A stretch of DNA of 64,000 bases from a virus (Duplodnaviria; Heunggongvirae; Uroviricota; Caudoviricetes). Made by a program: the position numbers and the translations under genes. Under the pieces are notes generated by a model. It made no database searches, was not told the DNA's origin, and saw only the letters and a program-made list of their open reading frames with translations. The stretch lies in IMG/VR virus record IMGVR_UViG_2541047879_000001; one strand, given 5' to 3'. Shown here in pieces: positions 20,977 to 40,458 of the stretch; within the stretch, counting starts at the first letter, position 1; every line of letters begins with the position of its first letter.

Positions 20977-21186
20977 TTAATTTGAATACAATGCAATTCT
21001 CGAGGACTGAAGTTTCTCGCAATTAAAATTTATCAGTTTTACTTTCTGCTCTCTGGAAACGCCTGCTTCTTTTTTACCTGAGAGCATTTTTTCGTATTCT
21101 GATTTCGTTAGTTTAGATTTTGAATATCTTGTCCAGTTAGTAGGAGTGCCACCTTCCTTTTCAATAGTGGCGGTAATTTTATACAT
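20977..21186 (-). CDS. Small Rac protein (YdaC-like)
   Basis: Start chosen at MYKITATIEKEGG...; 69 aa. Confidence 0.4.
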   Translation of the reverse strand: MYKITATIEKEGGTPTNWTRYSKSKLTKSEYEKMLSGKKEAGVSREQKVKLINFNCEKLQSSRIALYSN

Positions 21187-21373
21187 GAACACCTCCATTA
21201 TTATTTCCAGTGGTTCGTTTATTCCATCTTTCGAGTGCTTCTTTTTCACTTCCACCATAACCGGTTCGGGATTCGCATCCGTTACACTTCGCTCGGTAAT
21301 ATCCTGAAATGGCTTTCACCGTTACTGATGGACAACCACAAAATGGACATGGTTTAACATTGTCATATCTCAT
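21179..21373 (-). CDS. ralR: Restriction alleviation protein (RalR/Lar-like)
   Basis: 64 aa from MRYDNVKPCPFCGCPS...CNGCESRTG; zinc-ribbon motifs; upstream of recT. Confidence 0.6.
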   Translation of the reverse strand: MRYDNVKPCPFCGCPSVTVKAISGYYRAKCNGCESRTGYGGSEKEALERWNKRTTGNNNGGVHV

Positions 21374-31168: not shown

Positions 31169-31377
31169 CGAGATTAAAGACCATTAATTCATATGTGAAT
31201 TGACAGTTTCATGGCACAGGATACGGCTAGCGTGGTTGTCTGTTTTGTGCCAGGGGCGGGCCTAACTAAGTTCACACAACATTGATTATTGAAGATTAGG
31301 TCAGAAATAAATAGGTTATTTTGATAATTTAGTTACGTTAGAATGCCGCAGTGTACAAAGTAAAAATGAGGAATAAT

Positions 31378-32739
31378 ATGACTCGGAGTGAAATAAACGT
31401 CTGGGATAAGAGACGAGGCACCAATAGTCATCGTGTGGAGGAGATTCGATCTGAAGCTCAGCACGACCTTTCTCGACTGATTCACTCGTCTGCTTTCAGA
31501 CGATTGCAATCCAAAACACAGGTTCTTGGTCTGGGTGAAAGTGATTTCTACCGCACACGACTGACTCATTCTATGGAAGTCGCACAAATCGGTTCAGGTC
31601 TTCTTGCTAAGCTGAAAATAAAATATAAAGGTAAAGAGCAAGAGCAATTTTTACCAGATAACGATCTTATGCAGGCAGTATGTCTCGCACATGATATTGG
31701 ACATCCTCCATTTGGTCACGGCGGTGAGGTAGCTCTTAACTACTGTATGCAGGATTACGGTGGTTTTGAAGGAAACGGTCAGACACTTCGCATTCTCTCG
31801 AAACTAGATAAGTATACCGTTGAACACGGACTCGATCCTACACGCAGACTTCTGCTAGGCATACTGAAATATCCGGTTAAATACTCGGATCTAGTGGTTA
31901 CAAAAGACAGAATCCCGGCCACTATCGGATCGCCGAACTGGCTCTTTAAGTCATCTGATTTTAAACCTCCAAAATGCTATCTAGATTCAGAATGCGATGT
32001 TGTAGAATTTGCTCTTTCACCATTTACTGAACAGGATCGGAGGCTTTTTACTTCCGTTGAAGATGGTCAAACTAAATCCGATCATAAAAAAGCTTCTTAT
32101 AAAGCTCTCGATACAACCATCATGGATCTTGCCGATGAAATTTCGTATTCGCTGCACGATTTGGAGGATGCTATTTCTCTCGGAATGGTGACACGAGAAA
32201 TGTGGATGGAGCATTTCAGTGAATATGAAACCCTATTTACTAACTGCCATGGAGAAACATTTTCCGCAACATGTGAATCTGTCGCGGATAGCCTTTTTGG
32301 TGAAAGTTACAAGAGAAAAGAGTGCATCGGGATGCTGGTTCACCTGATGATTACAAGCGTTGAGCTTATTACAAAGAATCCAGCATTCGAATGTGGCATG
32401 CTCAAATATAATGCGGTCCTTCCGGAAGCGGTCGAAGCACTACGGTTGAAAATTTTCAAACTGGTCAAAAATAAAGTAATTAAGCATGAAAATGTACAGC
32501 AGCTTGAATTCAAGGGACAAAAGTTGATTGTTGAGCTTTTCGGTGTGCTGGCTAACGATCCGTGTCGGTTTCTACCGGCATCAACGAGGGAAATTTACGA
32601 GCGGCAGACTAGCTTGGACGAGAAGGCTGGTATGCGAGTCATTTGCGACTATGTTTCAGGGATGACTGATGACTATGCAACAAAGCTTTATGAGAAGATC
32701 CTTATTCCACGCAAAGGGTCTATTTTTGACCATCTCTAA
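31378..32739 (+). CDS. HD-domain dGTP triphosphohydrolase-like protein (Dgt family); candidate antiphage dNTP-depletion enzyme
   Basis: N-terminal SSAFRRLQSKTQV...RLTHSMEVAQIG and HD motif VCLAHDIGHPPFGHGGE matching dGTPase family; start at ATG 31378 with GAGGA 5 nt upstream; AT-rich gene in accessory island. Confidence 0.8.
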   Translation: MTRSEINVWDKRRGTNSHRVEEIRSEAQHDLSRLIHSSAFRRLQSKTQVLGLGESDFYRTRLTHSMEVAQIGSGLLAKLKIKYKGKEQEQFLPDNDLMQAVCLAHDIGHPPFGHGGEVALNYCMQDYGGFEGNGQTLRILSKLDKYTVEHGLDPTRRLLLGILKYPVKYSDLVVTKDRIPATIGSPNWLFKSSDFKPPKCYLDSECDVVEFALSPFTEQDRRLFTSVEDGQTKSDHKKASYKALDTTIMDLADEISYSLHDLEDAISLGMVTREMWMEHFSEYETLFTNCHGETFSATCESVADSLFGESYKRKECIGMLVHLMITSVELITKNPAFECGMLKYNAVLPEAVEALRLKIFKLVKNKVIKHENVQQLEFKGQKLIVELFGVLANDPCRFLPASTREIYERQTSLDEKAGMRVICDYVSGMTDDYATKLYEKILIPRKGSIFDHL

Positions 32740-33149
32740 TGCGGCAAGAATGATGCTCTGAGTTCAATTGACCTATAAACATTAACCAAGGCATCTACCA
32801 GGGGGATATCAAATCCCCCCATTCTGAATTTGTTCGTGCAGAATCGGTGAACGTTCTCATCTGAGCGTTAAACGCCAATAATCGTTGATCTACATTGATC
32901 ATTAATACACCTTAATACCATTAGCGTCTTACTCCGTTATGAGAACAAACGCGAACTGACCTGCCCCCAGTATTAGTGACCTTCAGCTACGGTAACTTGT
33001 CCGCTTCGTGCCAGAAGCGGACATCCATAGAGAAATAAGCGATCAGTTCTTAAATTTGTTGTGATTTTTTGATTTTTTTGTATTCGCAAAGGGATTTGTG
33101 TTGGTTGTATAATTACCTAATATTCATACAGTTGAATGGGAGATGTGGG

Positions 33150-34043
33150 ATGAAGTTCTCGTACAGACATGGTTTTGATCCTGAGTATAATAAAAAGCCG
33201 ATACGGGAAGATGCTCCAGAGTGGCTTCGCTCTTTATTTTTTGTAACTGTCCTCGATAATTTTTTGTACATTGATGGTGATAGCCGCATTACGAATGATG
33301 AGAACAAGCCGTTGGGTATTAAGGCTTTGATCGAGCGACTTTGCGCAGAGAATGGTCAAGAAACAGATCATGAGGATTTCGATTCATGGTACTGCTATGA
33401 TGCTTTGAAAGCGCGTTTGCAACATATGCGTTGGTTTCAATTTTATGATGCTGTTGAGATTATCGGAGATCTATTAAGAAAAAGAGATGTAGAAAGAGGC
33501 CATACTTGGGGTAAGAAGGCATTAGAAGACATTACTTTTACATCATATCGTCAGAAATTGAACGAGTTATTCGCATCTCGAAATATTGACTGGAAAATGA
33601 ATTCTGCTGGTAGGTTAGAAACACCACTACCAAATGAATTAGAACAAAAAATCGATGAAACTAACAACTTATTGCAAGACCAGTTTGAACCTGCAAGGAG
33701 GCACTATGTGAAAGCCCGGGCTTTTGCATTAGGTGCGCATAAGGATCCAGAAAATTCCATAAAAGAATCAATAAGTGCAATAGAAAGCATGTGTCGGACT
33801 TATTATCCTTCAGCCTCAACCTTGGGCGATGTATTAAAACTGATGAGAAAAGAAAACACTATCTCACCTATGCTTTTAACGGTGATAGAGAAATTTTACG
33901 CTTATACAAATGCAGAGCCAGCAGTAAGACATGGTAGCAACAAGGTTTCTTCTGTCTTGGAATACGATGCTGAATTCGTGTTGCATATATCAGCAGCATT
34001 TATTAGAACAATAATACAAAGAAAAGCTGTTTTGGATAACTAA
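33150..34043 (+). CDS. Hypothetical protein, possibly Abi-like (helical, contains Rx6H motif RAFALGAH)
   Basis: Start at ATG 33150 (MKFSYRHGFDPEY...) preceded by candidate -10 TATAAT (33108-33113); AT-rich; domain assignment unverified. Confidence 0.5.
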   Translation: MKFSYRHGFDPEYNKKPIREDAPEWLRSLFFVTVLDNFLYIDGDSRITNDENKPLGIKALIERLCAENGQETDHEDFDSWYCYDALKARLQHMRWFQFYDAVEIIGDLLRKRDVERGHTWGKKALEDITFTSYRQKLNELFASRNIDWKMNSAGRLETPLPNELEQKIDETNNLLQDQFEPARRHYVKARAFALGAHKDPENSIKESISAIESMCRTYYPSASTLGDVLKLMRKENTISPMLLTVIEKFYAYTNAEPAVRHGSNKVSSVLEYDAEFVLHISAAFIRTIIQRKAVLDN

Positions 34044-34283
34044 GTCAGACTTACAGCCAACTGACTGTCTCTTATTATTCAAAACATAATAATGTTAGGT
34101 CCGCTTATCGCACATCAGGGACAACCATACTCAAATCTCCCACATTGCAGGAGATTTGAGTGTGAACACGTCACCGTGGAACAAAGACTGTATCATCGGT
34201 CAAAAAAGACCTGGTTATCTAGCAAAAACTTTTAACATACCAACAAACTTAATTTATTTAAATGCTATTAATACAACTAATGT

Positions 34284-35510
34284 TTAAAATATATATTTTA
34301 TATCAACCCAATTTTTAGCATTATTGTCAACTAAAGTAACGCTATGTCCATGACTTGAATTTATAGCATCGATTACTGATTGTGATGGGTGTCCATGTGA
34401 ATGACCATCCGACTGAGCTATAAACAAAACATTATCAAAATCCGCAATTATTTTTTGATTGAAATTTAATTCCGAACCATGATGAGGTAATGTCATCACC
34501 CTTACCGTTTTAATCACTTTTGAATAGAATTCAGCCCATTTATTATAATACAATGATGTATTAAGCTTTGAGTCACCTGTTAATAAAACAGATCTAATTC
34601 CTTTATCTCTATCAAAGAGAAAATGTCGCTCAACCCGACTATTTCTAAAACTAAACCACTCACGAGAAGGCTCATTAACAATTTTCATCTCAGCTTCTTG
34701 ATTATTAATAATCAAGAGATTGATTGATATTACATTATGATCGCCAGCAAGTTTTAAATAACACTCGCGTAATTTCTTTCTTTCCCCCGTGCTAGTTAAT
34801 ATTTTAAGCATTTTTTTCTTACTTAACTCAGTAAAACCATTTTCTATTAACTGCTGACTGAAAATTTCAATTTTCTTACGTGAACGGGGCGGTATCCAAG
34901 AAATAAATGACATTAGTGTATCAGTTTTGTTTTCCCCAATCCTTTTAACCAACCAACGGTTACATTCAACATCTCCTTTGGAGTCAGATATTTTCATTGG
35001 TAAGCTTACAGCGCTATCCTTAATGTTTTCACTATTAAATATAGGAGGGTCAAAATTATCATCAATATCACAGGGGTAAAGCAAAGATATATCTGCCTCA
35101 GGCAACCTTGATTTTATCCATTTGACAGGATCAATGAGAAATTCCATAAAAAGACCTGACGTAGAATTAGAGCATAGCTCCGATGCAATTAAGTAATAGC
35201 TATCATGGATATCTAGGTATGGTAATACAACCTTGCGTATTTTGTTATCTACAAGCTGACATAAATGGTCAAATCCATTTATATGGTCTGAATCCAAATG
35301 AGAGATGTATACCACATCAATATATTTCTCATCAATATTAAAGAGAGATTTAGCCACATCCATCTCCCTACGCAACGCATTTAATTGGTCACTTCCGCAG
35401 TCATACACATAACTGTAAAGCAAACTACCATCCCTTCCCCTCAGTCCGCCTAAACTAAATCCACCCTGGCCAACGGGAAACAATCTTTTATGAAATACTT
35501 CTCCGCTCAT
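34284..35510 (-). CDS. Standalone metallo-beta-lactamase-fold hydrolase (ComEC/Rec2-type MBL domain, putative nuclease)
   Basis: 408 aa; motifs PVGQGG, HLDSDHINGF (HxDxDH-type metal site) and LPHHGS characteristic of the ComEC-type MBL domain; no TM segments; AT-rich. Confidence 0.7.
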   Translation of the reverse strand: MSGEVFHKRLFPVGQGGFSLGGLRGRDGSLLYSYVYDCGSDQLNALRREMDVAKSLFNIDEKYIDVVYISHLDSDHINGFDHLCQLVDNKIRKVVLPYLDIHDSYYLIASELCSNSTSGLFMEFLIDPVKWIKSRLPEADISLLYPCDIDDNFDPPIFNSENIKDSAVSLPMKISDSKGDVECNRWLVKRIGENKTDTLMSFISWIPPRSRKKIEIFSQQLIENGFTELSKKKMLKILTSTGERKKLRECYLKLAGDHNVISINLLIINNQEAEMKIVNEPSREWFSFRNSRVERHFLFDRDKGIRSVLLTGDSKLNTSLYYNKWAEFYSKVIKTVRVMTLPHHGSELNFNQKIIADFDNVLFIAQSDGHSHGHPSQSVIDAINSSHGHSVTLVDNNAKNWVDIKYIF

Positions 35511-36224
35511 ATATCCTTCTTACACCCTAACGTGATCATAAAATTGTCTTAAAGTTAAGTTTAAAGCTAAAAAGTCACAGCTCATTCCAACTCGTGAGCA
35601 ATAGGAATGTATATTCAATCAGTTAGAGGATCAACCCGATTTTCTCTAATGAGATTTCGCAACGCAGTACGAACAGCAGCTACTTCTGCCATCTCATTAA
35701 CAACCACACTGGACTACAATCCCCTAAGTTCTACAGACTGTAACCATATCCTCTTCACAGAAATAATCTGATTAATGCTGAAGGTCATCTTTCTCGACGC
35801 GAATGTATGACATAACAACCTCAGTTAATTATCTTTCGATAGAAAAATACCTTCACAAAAGGTTTAAGCAACCCATCACAAGACAACACGCTAAGCTTGC
35901 CTTGTAAGCGTCCTGCTTAACCGAACAGTTCGCTTTCAGAGGATCTCCGGAGAACAGCTCCGATGCCTTATAAGGCCAATGCTCGCTCCTCGCTCACTGC
36001 GGACCTAAGGTTTGGTCAGCTTGTTCGCACTCTGCCAAAAGCGGGAGTTACTCCCATTCGGTGTTAATCAATGTAGAGCAGATCAATCAACGACAAAGAA
36101 AATGAGAGGCATATCACTACTCATATGAAAATTATTGTAGTAAAGTGAGCCGTAAGTTCATCATTTATAAATCATATAGCATATATGTTATATCAATTTT
36201 AATTTAAATGGCAGAATAATTACC

Positions 36225-36929
36225 ATGGAAAAAATTAAAACTCCTTGTCCATATTGTAAAGGTGAAAAAAATTGCCACATAATAGGCCATAAAAAAAGAG
36301 AATGGAGTGAGGATGATGGGGGCAACTATTTTTGGGCTGAAAGTGAATACAAATTATTAGAGTGTATGGGGTGCGACGGAATATTTACATATATTAAATC
36401 CCGTCACAGTGAAGATTACGACATTGAAAGAGATGAGTCAGGCTATGATTGTATGGTATATAACTATCATATATCAACATATCCCACTCAAGAGCAAGAA
36501 GAGATTAGACCAACTTGGTTTGGTGAGACATTAAACAAAGATCGTCAGCTGTATGTAATAATGAACGAAATGTACATCGCATTTCAAAATAAATCATTCA
36601 TTTTAGCGGCGATTGGACTTAGAACTATTTTTGACAGAACAGTTGAGGTTCTAAATATTCATCCAGGATATACATTAGGCCAGAAGGTTGACATTCTTAA
36701 AGAGGAAGGTTTTATTGGGGAAACAGAAAGGAGCCAACTTAAAATTGTAACCGAAGCTGGCAACTCAGCTGCACACAGGACATGGGCACCGAACGAAACT
36801 GAATTTAAATCGCTTTTGGTAATTATAGAAAATTTTGTAATGCGAACAATACTAAAAAATGAGGATATATTTAAGATTACAGAAAAATTACCTGCGAAAT
36901 ATCCAAGACCTCCCAAAAAGCAAGAATAA
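36225..36929 (+). CDS. Zinc-ribbon / DUF4145-like (HEPN-superfamily-like) protein
   Basis: 234 aa; N-terminal CPYC...CMGC zinc ribbon; C-terminal AAIGLRTIFDRTVE...GNSAAHRTW resembling DUF4145; AT-rich. Confidence 0.6.
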   Translation: MEKIKTPCPYCKGEKNCHIIGHKKREWSEDDGGNYFWAESEYKLLECMGCDGIFTYIKSRHSEDYDIERDESGYDCMVYNYHISTYPTQEQEEIRPTWFGETLNKDRQLYVIMNEMYIAFQNKSFILAAIGLRTIFDRTVEVLNIHPGYTLGQKVDILKEEGFIGETERSQLKIVTEAGNSAAHRTWAPNETEFKSLLVIIENFVMRTILKNEDIFKITEKLPAKYPRPPKKQE

Positions 36930-37367
36930 TGTACGTAAGTGTAAATAGAGCTAAGAGATTATATATTGACTCTGGTTATCTCTATTAGCACATGCTTTTT
37001 GTAATGCCTTAACTGATTATTTAAACTCCTGTCAGCTTTTCGCTCAAAGCGGACTAAAGTGTTGGCTTGTGACTGACTTAGCGCATTTAAGGAAGTGGTG
37101 GTGGTGACGGGGTGTTGTGTCCCATTTCCACAGAATAAATCAGAGAAACTATAGCGGCTGTAATGGCAATCTATGGTCTTGCTATTGCTCTTATGGATCA
37201 CCTTTCTGATTGATTTCATATTGGCGAGGTAACGGGAGTTAAGTAGAATAGCTGCGGGTGCTTGAGGCTGTCTGCCTCGGGCATGAACACCAAAGGCAGA
37301 TAGAGAAAAGCCCCAGTTAACATTACGCGTCCGGCAAGACGCTTAACATTAATCTGAGGCCACATCT

Positions 37368-37616
37368 ATGCTTTGCATACGTAGATTAGCCTCTTACCGA
37401 CCAAAAGGTCAAGGAGAAGCAGGCTATGAAGCAGCAAAAGGCGATGTTAATCACCCTGATCGTCATCTGTTTAACCGTTATAGTGACGGTACTGGTAACG
37501 AGGAAAGACCTCTGCGAGGTACGAATCCGAACCGACCAGACGGAGGTCGCTGTCTTCACAGCTTACGAACTTGGGGAGTAAGAGGACCAGCGGGGAGAAA
37601 TCCCCGCAACCTCTGA
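37368..37616 (+). CDS. mok: mok-like overlapping reading frame of hok locus
   Basis: 82-aa frame starting 58 nt upstream of hok and overlapping it in another frame, as in hok/sok loci. Confidence 0.45.
   Translation: MLCIRRLASYRPKGQGEAGYEAAKGDVNHPDRHLFNRYSDGTGNEERPLRGTNPNRPDGGRCLHSLRTWGVRGPAGRNPRNL
37426..37581 (+). CDS. hok: Hok/Gef-family type I toxin
   Basis: Own translation MKQQKAMLITLIVICLTVIVTVLVTRKDLCEVRIRTDQTEVAVFTAYELGE (51 aa, below track cutoff), near-identical to E. coli Hok proteins; SD AAGGAG upstream; 3' hairpin GCGGGGA-GAAA-TCCCCGC at 37590-37607. Confidence 0.85.
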   Translation: MKQQKAMLITLIVICLTVIVTVLVTRKDLCEVRIRTDQTEVAVFTAYELGE

Positions 37617-38044
37617 TGTATTATGCATCCTCAACGCAGCCACAGTTAACCTGATTGGCGGGTTTACTTCATCTGTAAATATTTTTATAAAAATAATGCC
37701 CACGCACAGCATAAAACAAAAAGTATTACAGATAAAAAAGGAACGTAATGTACAGATTTGTTGTTTTCCATATTTACTCACCTTAATATGATTAACCCTG
37801 ATAGGGCTGTTATTTCAGCGGTTTTCAAATGAGATATTATGGTGATCTGACAAATTTGCATAACATTAAAATTTAATTTGTTTAACCGCTTTTAATAATA
37901 AGCGTTGTTTGTATCCCAGCAATCTGTTGTTTGGTTTTTATTCCATTAAGGTGGGGGCTTTACACTGGAACCAGTTTATTTATACTTTATACGTCAGCCT
38001 GAACAACTGGCATCTGCTGCACTGCGCCATCGAGAGATTGAGAA

Positions 38045-39927: not shown

Positions 39928-40458
39928 GGCTGGTTTATTGTATGCCAAATGATTATTAAAAAGGTTGTGTTAATAACAAAACCCGAAATAATATGCCTGC
40001 ATATTTTTATCTTGCTTATATTCTGCATATTGTGCATAGCAGGCTCATCCCTGCAATCAAAACTGTATGATGAGTATTTTTTGTTTTCCTTTTTTCCAGT
40101 CATCTGATGATGACCTGCTTCTTTTTAATCCGGATCGACATCAGTTTTTTAAGATAATTCCTGCGAGTTATATGCATAAATACCACAAACTCCGCATTTT
40201 ATGTGGTTGGGAGTTGCCGGGCGCGCAGTGAGTTTGCTAAGAAAACTCCTGCATGGTGAATCCCCCTGTGCGGTGGGGTGATACCATTAACCTTTTCTGT
40301 CGCCGACAGGTATCACGAACATTTTGTTCACCGGGAGGCACCCGGCACCATGCACTTCAATAGATTCTCTCCACATTATGGATATTCTTTCAGAATATCC
40401 CACGCAGACTTTGTGTAAATGTTAACAAATGTGCGTTTTATTTGATCTGATTCGCTGT

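Follow-up and report, generated by a model that had tools for sequence, protein, structure and literature searches.

The region at 37300-37615 of the Caudoviricetes virus record IMGVR_UViG_2541047879_000001 had been proposed, in an initial annotation made by reading the sequence, to be a hok/mok/sok type I toxin-antitoxin locus. This raised the questions of whether such a locus is present and complete, how far it extends, where its antisense RNA gene lies and what its position beside a defence island implies. The window referred to throughout is the whole stretch of 64,000 nucleotides that was analysed.

Judged by sequence comparison, the locus is very probably a hok/mok/sok type I toxin-antitoxin module of the canonical kind (probability about 0.9), located in the accessory region of a lambdoid, Rac-type prophage of E. 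coli that has integrated at ttcA. The copy is real and apparently complete, its elements having been placed by homology and folding. The locus is already known and the biology of the module is textbook; as the toxin gene is already named in public annotation, the find is correct but ordinary. What is added here are the true boundaries (37221 to ~37670), the placement of the sok promoter and RNA and a strand caveat on the Rfam match, with allele-specific 3′ changes and an apparently swapped Sok cassette as minor points. For annotation, this means that the ORF track should carry the 51-aa Hok toxin, the mok frame and the antisense Sok RNA gene.

Coding frames and extent of the unit

The sense-strand features from promoter to terminator position are as follows.

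37221-37249, plus strand: hok/mok promoter, with -35 TTGGCG at 37221-37226, a 17-nt spacer and -10 TAGAAT at 37244-37249
37256-37645, plus strand: predicted full-length mok-hok mRNA, 5′ end from the promoter and the Rfam model start
37356-37359, plus strand: mok Shine-Dalgarno (SD) sequence GAGG, 8 nt upstream of the mok AUG, read from the sequence
37368-37616, plus strand: mok frame, 82 codons, in the +1 frame and covering all of hok
37413-37416, plus strand: hok SD sequence GGAG
37426-37581, plus strand: hok toxin gene, 51 aa, MKQQKAMLITLIVICLTVIVTVLVTRKDLCEVRIRTDQTEVAVFTAYELGE
37564-37567, plus strand: TACG motif at Hok codon Tyr47, read from the sequence
37582-37613, plus strand: 3′ UTR hairpin, core GCGGGGAGAAAUCCCCGC at 37590-37607 (GCGGGGA-GAAA-UCCCCGC)
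37648-37670, plus strand: degenerate hok terminator remnant, AACCTGATTGGCGGGTTTACTTC where relatives have AACCCGCTTCGGCGGGTTTTT (alignments A1 and A4)

The Hok frame was missed by the ORF track because of its 60-aa cutoff. Re-inspection of 37426-37581 (+) found it intact, without premature stop or frameshift, and its 51-aa product matched Pfam HOK_GEF (PF01848) with E = 5.3e-21 and 74.4 bits (cutoff 22) over profile positions 1-42 of 42; NCBIfam Hok-family matches to the product were below the curated cutoffs. The protein has the make-up of the Hok/Gef family, whose toxins of ~50 aa begin with a hydrophobic helix and are conserved in their C-terminal part; the hydrophobic stretch reads AMLITLIVICLTVIVTVLV in the sequence. 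Identity was 90% to K-12 HokD and 42% to R1 Hok. An identical product is listed in RefSeq as WP_021554378.1, 'Hok/Gef family protein'; the RefSeq record annotates hok and neither mok nor sok. In GenBank MN652886 ('phage Rac'), mok and hok are both annotated in the same slot. In K-12 hokC, hokD and hokE, the codon homologous to Tyr47 undergoes TadA A-to-I editing (Tyr to Cys) (PMC5630033, PMC12214031), and the toxin described here may likewise depend partly on mRNA editing at this codon.

Related sequence was present in 4729 of 5426 complete E. coli genomes and also in 102 phage records, and a 521-nt query (37200-37720) was 100% identical in E. coli S40. For comparative analysis, 41 family loci were used, comprising the window, an R1-type plasmid, K-12 hokB, phage and plasmid copies, E. 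coli HKUOPY1 and E62, and chromosomal copies from Escherichia, Shigella, Kluyvera, Pseudocitrobacter, Citrobacter, Photorhabdus and Pantoea. A blastn search in 'distant' mode against plasmids did not reach R1-type loci and returned mostly non-mobilizable plasmids of ~95-100 kb with hokD-labelled genes; the R1-type locus was recovered by tblastn with the R1 Hok protein. K-12 hokA (L006, disrupted by IS150) and L007, which holds only sokE, were unused. Left out or flagged were L019 and L035 (relBE-hokD without leader), L054 (replaced 5′ region), L018 (degenerate leader) and L029 (IS186 after hokC); these five are natural decayed loci, contrasting with the intact copy in the window.

The overlapping mok frame, which had been equated with an 82-aa ORF of the track, was confirmed at 37368-37616 (+), offset by +1 relative to hok. 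It has its own SD sequence, starts with ATG at 37368, reads through the SD and start of hok and stays open to 37616; the ATG was aligned in most of the 41 loci. The mok frame of MN652886 is annotated as 68 codons, and the frame here exceeds that of relatives by 14 codons, the usual stop having been lost (ACC TGA to ACT TGG). In R1, translation of mok has to reach no further than the hok SD (PMC9841398), so the extension should be harmless. The 82-aa Mok had no match in Pfam or NCBIfam, as expected for mok; a reading of it as a distinct protein was rejected on the grounds of this result and of the extension amounting to one lost stop codon.

A sigma-70 consensus scan gave 9/12 matches for the hok promoter. 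Its -10 hexamer (TAGAAT, TATAAT, TAGGAT or similar) was kept before the mRNA start in relatives, whereas the -35 was not conserved across them (alignments A1 and A2). The predicted 3′ end of the mRNA is uncertain and lies beyond fbi, at about 37645-37670. The unit, spanning the hok promoter through fbi and the degenerate terminator remnant, hence occupies 37221 to ~37670. The interval 37300-37615 proposed initially does hold the features named for it, including the conserved 3′ hairpin, which was found at 37590-37607 inside an outer stem at 37582-37613; it is too short at both ends, with the hok promoter (37221-37249), tac (37256-37267) and fbi (37629-37641) lying outside.

The Rfam scan suggested for Sok and hok mRNA elements, run on the whole window, yielded a match to RF01794 'sok' at 37256-37431 (+) with 105.2 bits (gathering score 59, E = 7.7e-23), covering model positions 1-157 of 157 and with the model beginning exactly at the predicted mRNA start, ~37256. 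On the minus strand, RF01794 scored only 14.5 bits (E = 1). Since the match is on the hok-sense strand, it detects the hok mRNA leader and is not direct evidence for Sok, and its use as evidence for the antisense RNA was rejected. A structured leader with the tac hairpin and Sok-target hairpins is what the plus-strand match reveals.

Predicted Sok RNA and mRNA folding switch

The regulatory elements on both strands are listed below.

37256-37267, plus strand: tac (translational activator element), GGGUGCUUGAGG, at the 5′ end of the mRNA
37295-37314, plus strand: ucb region, GGCAGAUAGAGAAAAGCCCC, nearly invariant in alignment A2
37300-37376, minus strand: predicted Sok antisense RNA, 77 nt, ends transferred from RefSeq-annotated K-12 sokC and sokB
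37355-37394, plus strand: Sok-target hairpin holding the mok SD, the mok AUG and dcb, with loop CUUUGCAUA
37383-37412, minus strand: predicted sok promoter, with -35 TTGACC from 37412 to 37407, an 18-nt spacer and -10 TAATCT from 37388 to 37383
37389-37393, plus strand: dcb GCCUC, pairing with the mok SD in the local hairpin
37629-37641, plus strand: fbi (fold-back inhibitory element), CCUCAACGCAGCC, complementary to the mRNA 5′ end

The antisense sok RNA had been expected on the minus strand at ~37330-37420, with a promoter that could not be defined by eye. In a strict sigma-70 scan, the hok promoter was found and the sok promoter was not, because the -10 of the latter matches only 3/6 consensus positions; it was therefore located by homology. 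In this part of the window the minus strand reads CCTTGACC-TTTTGGTCGGTAAGAGGC-TAATCT-ACGTAT-G, and the predicted +1 is the G at 37376. Alignment with hok/sok loci, as had been proposed, revealed the promoter, RNA and tail to be positionally homologous to RefSeq-annotated K-12 sokC and sokB. The predicted Sok RNA, running from 37376 to 37300, overlaps the expected interval, about half of which covers the predicted promoter and not the RNA.

Sok is predicted to consist of a variable 5′ tail, GCAAAGCAUAGAUG, a 23-bp hairpin and a tail, CUUUUCUCUAU, with its 3′ end near 37300 in the U-rich tail ...GGGGCUUUUCUCUAU. The predicted fold has -31.8 kcal/mol (z = -4.9) and leaves free the 5′ tail, the part of Sok that can pair with the mok AUG and target loop by complementarity. 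That loop (CUUUGC), complementary to the Sok 5′ end (GCAAAG...), belongs to a hairpin with a local fold of -13.5 kcal/mol (z = -3.2), corresponding to the third hairpin of the Rfam model.

Across the 41 aligned loci, the sok -35 region reads CTCCTTG(A)CC in most and is degenerate in L018; the spacer motif GTAAGAGGC is retained in nearly all, as are the GGCCUC box and the GGGGCUUU tail of Sok, and positions A2 and T6 of the -10 are retained in the rows listed. Variation is seen in the first ~15 nt of Sok. When 28 distinct Sok sequences were folded with RNAalifold, the hairpin was recovered, with compensatory changes in 4 of 12 pairs (for example AU:18/GC:10 and GC:14/AU:12). In sequence terms, these elements make up a putative cis-encoded antisense Sok gene, its promoter lying between the starts of mok and hok.

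The full-length hok mRNA (37256-37645) was predicted to fold with a minimum free energy (MFE) of -147.9 kcal/mol (z = -7.4). In the MFE structure, the ends of the mRNA pair (37256-37266 with 37630-37641), with one bulged C and one G.G mismatch in the tac/fbi pairing, and ucb (37310-37314) pairs with the mok SD region (37356-37360). Upon in silico truncation at 37612, which removes fbi, tac moved onto ucb (37308-37314) and the mok SD was freed; the nascent 75-nt RNA likewise paired tac with ucb at 37308-37314. A ucb/dcb switch is present as a thermodynamic prediction only, and the predicted change between full-length and truncated mRNA reproduces the published R1 model as described in PMC9841398. 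The 3′ UTR hairpin, whose position is conserved across A2, is presumed to be the stop for 3′ exonucleolytic trimming that would give the active truncated mRNA, as in R1.

Covariation across genera supports tac/fbi end-pairing as a family feature. On A2, 89% of cells were paired, compared with 34-55% when the 3′ partner was slid, and 21 double-sided changes were counted, a value reached by 0/500 shuffles; position 4, for instance, is U-A in 27 loci and C-G in 12. The column-wise count under-scores the distal half because the Photorhabdus and Pantoea loci, without the bulged C, are out of register by one column. Duplexes were therefore also calculated sequence by sequence against shuffled controls, with z-scores that are approximate owing to the mononucleotide shuffles; these calculations placed the duplexes 45-57 nt after the hok stop in nearly all loci.

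From homology and folding, the following course of events is proposed for the prophage copy. The promoter at 37221-37249 would give a stable mRNA that starts at ~37256 and measures roughly 390 nt or more, in which tac is paired with fbi and ucb covers the mok ribosome-binding site, so that the full-length mRNA would neither be translated nor be bound by Sok. With slow trimming of the 3′ end as far as the hairpin at 37590-37607, fbi would be lost, whereupon tac would pair with ucb and expose the mok start and the Sok-target hairpin; mok translation into the hok SD would then allow translation of the 51-aa membrane toxin Hok. Meanwhile, the constitutive minus-strand promoter (37412-37383) would supply an unstable Sok RNA of ~77 nt (37376-37300), whose 5′ tail is expected to base-pair around the mok start and to provoke cleavage of the duplex. 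Toxin would thus appear only once Sok synthesis stops, for example upon DNA loss or host transcription shut-off, and this release could give both addiction to the prophage or island and exclusion of phages that shut off transcription.

Prophage setting, possible defence role and allele-specific changes

The S40 copy lies in a complete Rac-type prophage adjoining ttcA. Comparison of the 40-kb S40 region showed the gene coordinates around the hok locus to correspond to those of the window. The order in the S40 prophage is intR, xisR, ralR, recT/E, kilR, a sieB-like gene, repressor region, replication genes, cargo and hok, followed by DUF1367/DUF1364/DUF1133 (Q-like) genes, lysis genes, trkG and structural genes.

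The defence genes said to adjoin the locus are real. Within 6 kb upstream of hok lie genes for a dGTPase (PADLOC, 481 bits), a PDC-S32/AbiJ_NTD4-like protein, an MBL-fold protein with an LmuA-like C-terminus and a DUF4145 protein; PADLOC-DB v2 gave matches for three of these four neighbours and none for the DUF4145 protein. The slot just upstream of hok carries other cargo or none in other strains, with a DUF262 protein and an AAA ATPase in E62. The role in phage exclusion or island stabilisation suggested initially is plausible. A rival reading, in which the module is functional and its selected role is abortive-infection defence within the prophage's defence hotspot and not prophage addiction, draws on the four upstream genes, on the exchangeable cargo of the slot and on the reduction of T4 plating and burst size by R1 hok/sok (Pecota & Wood 1996, via PMC7438911). 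In the literature, T4 exclusion is reported for R1 hok/sok only. However, a 2026 preprint cataloguing 44,248 Hok homologs (10.1101/2025.08.07.668861) found hok to be enriched in prophages (23% observed versus 5% expected) but not near defence systems (12% versus 9.4%), making adjacency weak evidence for a defence role. No model of PADLOC-DB v2 matched Hok, and related prophages, among them Rac 442/2 and HKUOPY1, carry hok at this position with no defence genes upstream of it; hok and the defence genes may thus be neighbours only because they share a slot for accessory genes. We consider a dedicated defence role possible, if rather unlikely, and find it somewhat more probable that the module stabilises the prophage or accessory region.

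A different question is whether the copy still works. A commoner allele occupies the same genomic context (E. coli A11 type; 421 genomes, 80-90% identity), and compared with it the window copy has a cluster of changes in its 3′ part. The fbi element reads GCAGCC in place of GCACCC, this C to G change causing the G.G mismatch, and the tac/fbi duplex was calculated at -17.4 kcal/mol compared with -21.5 kcal/mol in the nearest relatives, i.e. about 4 kcal/mol weaker. Downstream of it, the terminator is damaged (AACCCGCTTCGGCGGGTTTATTTT to AACCTGATT-GGCGGGTTTACTTC), with the stem changed in its 5′ arm from CCCGC to CCTGA and the T-tract from TTTATTTT to TTTACTTC; a weak hairpin remains, and a terminator scan of 37100-37800 detected no terminator-like site. 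The 3′ module occurs at ≥99% identity in 116 complete E. coli genomes and is therefore not a one-off lesion.

Considering the fbi mismatch, the damaged terminator and the lost mok stop, regulation may be altered. The clustering of these changes, the negative terminator scan and the view that most chromosomal hok loci of K-12 are inactive (PMC12214031) would fit a decaying, regulation-impaired or silent relic that, like K-12 hokA, hokC, hokD and hokE, no longer kills or stabilises. Against this stand the intact hok, mok, both promoters, tac, ucb, dcb and the Sok hairpin and tail; moreover, end-pairing is still the MFE solution, the R1 tac/fbi duplex itself has a mismatch, and neither an IS element nor a rearrangement is present. 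We regard decay as unlikely, and it retains what weight it has mainly because the weaker end-pairing and the missing terminator may change regulation.

Another allele-specific trait concerns the antitoxin. The window and the HKUOPY1 and E62 alleles match near-perfectly in the flanks, the leader and the hok coding region, with 64/64 positions in the 3′ UTR and 75/75 in the downstream region. The exception is 37355-37425, comprising the Sok 5′ end, the mok start and the sok promoter, where identity was 55/71 to HKUOPY1, 51/71 to E62 and 71/71 to the Rac 442/2 phage copy. Given the perfect match to Rac 442/2 amid a HKUOPY1/E62-like backbone, this 71-nt antitoxin-specificity cassette appears to have been swapped as a unit between otherwise different hok loci. 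Such an exchange could reset antitoxin specificity where several hok/sok copies coexist.

The most far-reaching reading concerns both traits, each on its own: the 116-genome sub-lineage with its weakened fbi and without an effective terminator might show hok read-through toward the DUF1367/DUF1364/Q-like late-regulatory genes, or faster activation, and, separately, the exchange of the 71-nt Sok cassette could be a specificity reset. This is put forward as a speculative idea that we judge improbable; if read-through or faster activation were true, toxin release would be tied to the prophage or infection state and not to simple DNA loss. Finally, although a lone 51-aa ORF would be unremarkable in 64 kb, a chance short ORF with fortuitous hairpins is refuted to near certainty by the Pfam (E = 5e-21) and Rfam (E = 8e-23) matches and by the homologous sequence in 4729/5426 E. 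coli genomes.

Comparison with known systems

The canonical module that we favour has a close described counterpart in hok/mok/sok (parB) of R1/IncFII plasmids. The two are alike upstream in the hok promoter, tac, ucb, the Sok-target hairpin with the mok start and dcb, and further on in the sok promoter overlapping the hok SD region, hok, the 3′ hairpin and fbi (A1 and A2); the predicted switch between full-length and truncated mRNA is likewise the same (model in PMC9841398). They differ in that Hok is only 42% identical and that the carrier is a prophage in the window and a plasmid in R1. Sok is predicted at 77 nt in the window versus 60 nt for the homologous segment of the R1-type locus, the greater length being due to a ~20-nt insertion that lengthens the hairpin, and mok has 82 codons versus 70. 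In the window, the tac/fbi pairing is interrupted by a bulged C and by a G.G mismatch, and a clear terminator after fbi is missing.

Rac 442/2 (MN652886) shares the slot between replication-region genes and DUF1367/DUF1364/Q-like genes. Its hok/mok region has 93% nucleotide identity to the window, rising to 71/71 in the 71-nt segment with the Sok 5′ end, mok start and sok promoter; in contrast to the window, its mok ends at the canonical stop (68 codons), its fbi reads GCACCC and its terminator is strong, and it is followed by rem and preceded by other cargo.

Among the K-12 loci, Qin hokD (relF) encodes a Hok with 90% identity and has a homologous 3′ UTR with hairpin, fbi and terminator, but it lies directly after relBE, without tac, ucb, mok or a sok leader, and is regarded as rearranged and inactive (PMC12214031). 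The locus in the window is complete; where RefSeq labels close relatives 'HokD', the name therefore reflects the likeness of the proteins only. K-12 hokC/sokC (gef) and hokB/sokB resemble the window in promoter layout and in a Sok tail of the GGGGCUUUUCUCUAU type; their sokC and sokB RNAs are shorter (57-59 nt) and differ from the window's Sok in the 5′ recognition sequences, and in hokC a downstream IS186 removes fbi.

RalR/RalA of the rac prophage is also a type I toxin-antitoxin system and resides in the same prophage; in the window, Rfam RalA matched at 21002-21180 with 222.5 bits, and ralR is annotated in S40. As described in PMC4041452, the RalR toxin is a DNase, and the RalA antitoxin is an sRNA that acts in trans and has short complementarity. 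RalR/RalA and hok/sok share neither sequence nor mechanism; the Rac-type prophage thus has two unrelated modules of type I toxin-antitoxin beside a variable slot for defence genes.

Mosaic structure of the toxin-antitoxin locus

Comparison with the loci of phage Rac 442/2 and of E. coli HKUOPY1 and E62 (L008, L011, L012) revealed, at the sequence level, that the hok/mok/sok locus of the window is a mosaic, with one stretch following a pattern of its own:

37355-37425: 71-nt segment that holds the 5' end of Sok together with the sok promoter and the mok start

This segment was identical to that of phage Rac 442/2 at all 71 positions, whereas 55/71 positions were shared with the HKUOPY1 allele and 51/71 with the E62 allele, both of which matched the window near-perfectly outside it. 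This pattern suggests that the antitoxin-specificity cassette was exchanged as one unit.

Reading of the leader match and of the TACG motifs

Rfam model RF01794 ('sok antitoxin') matched 37256-37431 on the plus strand, which is the hok-sense strand, with the match ending at the hok AUG, while the minus strand scored 14.5 bits only. We conclude from this strand preference that RF01794 depicts the hok mRNA leader and that its match strand is not to be taken for that of Sok.

Two TACG motifs were found in hok:

37520-37523: second TACG, reading GTA-CGA
37564-37567: TACG at Hok codon Tyr47

At the position equivalent to Tyr47, TadA A-to-I editing converts Tyr to Cys in K-12 hokC, hokD and hokE (PMC5630033, PMC12214031). 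Editing at 37520-37523, if it occurred, would be synonymous.

Flanking regions and other RNA genes

Upstream of hok, 31351-36929 is a slot whose cargo varies:

within 31351-36929: anti-phage dGTPase (PADLOC, 481 bits)
33069-34043: PDC-S32/AbiJ_NTD4-like ORF
34284-35510, minus strand: MBL-fold protein with LmuA-like C-terminus
36225-36929: DUF4145 protein

The equivalent slot of E. coli E62 instead carries DUF262 and an AAA ATPase.

Downstream, an inverted repeat separates hok from the DUF1367 gene:

37671-37733: long A+T-rich inverted repeat, ATCTGTAAATA ... TATTACAGAT

On the plus strand, a run of A comes directly after the repeat. The repeat is kept in the contexts of A11, HKUOPY1 and E62, whereas Rac 442/2 lacks it and has a rem gene in its place.

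The prophage of the window also holds a second type I toxin-antitoxin, RalR/RalA, unrelated to hok/sok, and, in its late-regulatory region, an STnc100 match that lies downstream of the DUF1133/Q-like gene:

21002-21180, plus strand: RalA sRNA (Rfam, 222.5 bits)
~21179-21373, minus strand: ralR, beside RalA; the E. coli S40 record annotates this gene
40221-40407, plus strand: STnc100 sRNA (Rfam, 86.6 bits; gathering score 47)

Comparison with K-12-type hokD

K-12-type hokD (L003 from the K-12 Qin prophage, L019, L035) directly follows relBE and is devoid of the tac/ucb/mok/sok leader, yet retains fbi and a strong terminator. Where RefSeq gives the name 'HokD' to complete hok/sok loci elsewhere, the name reflects nothing beyond similarity of the protein.
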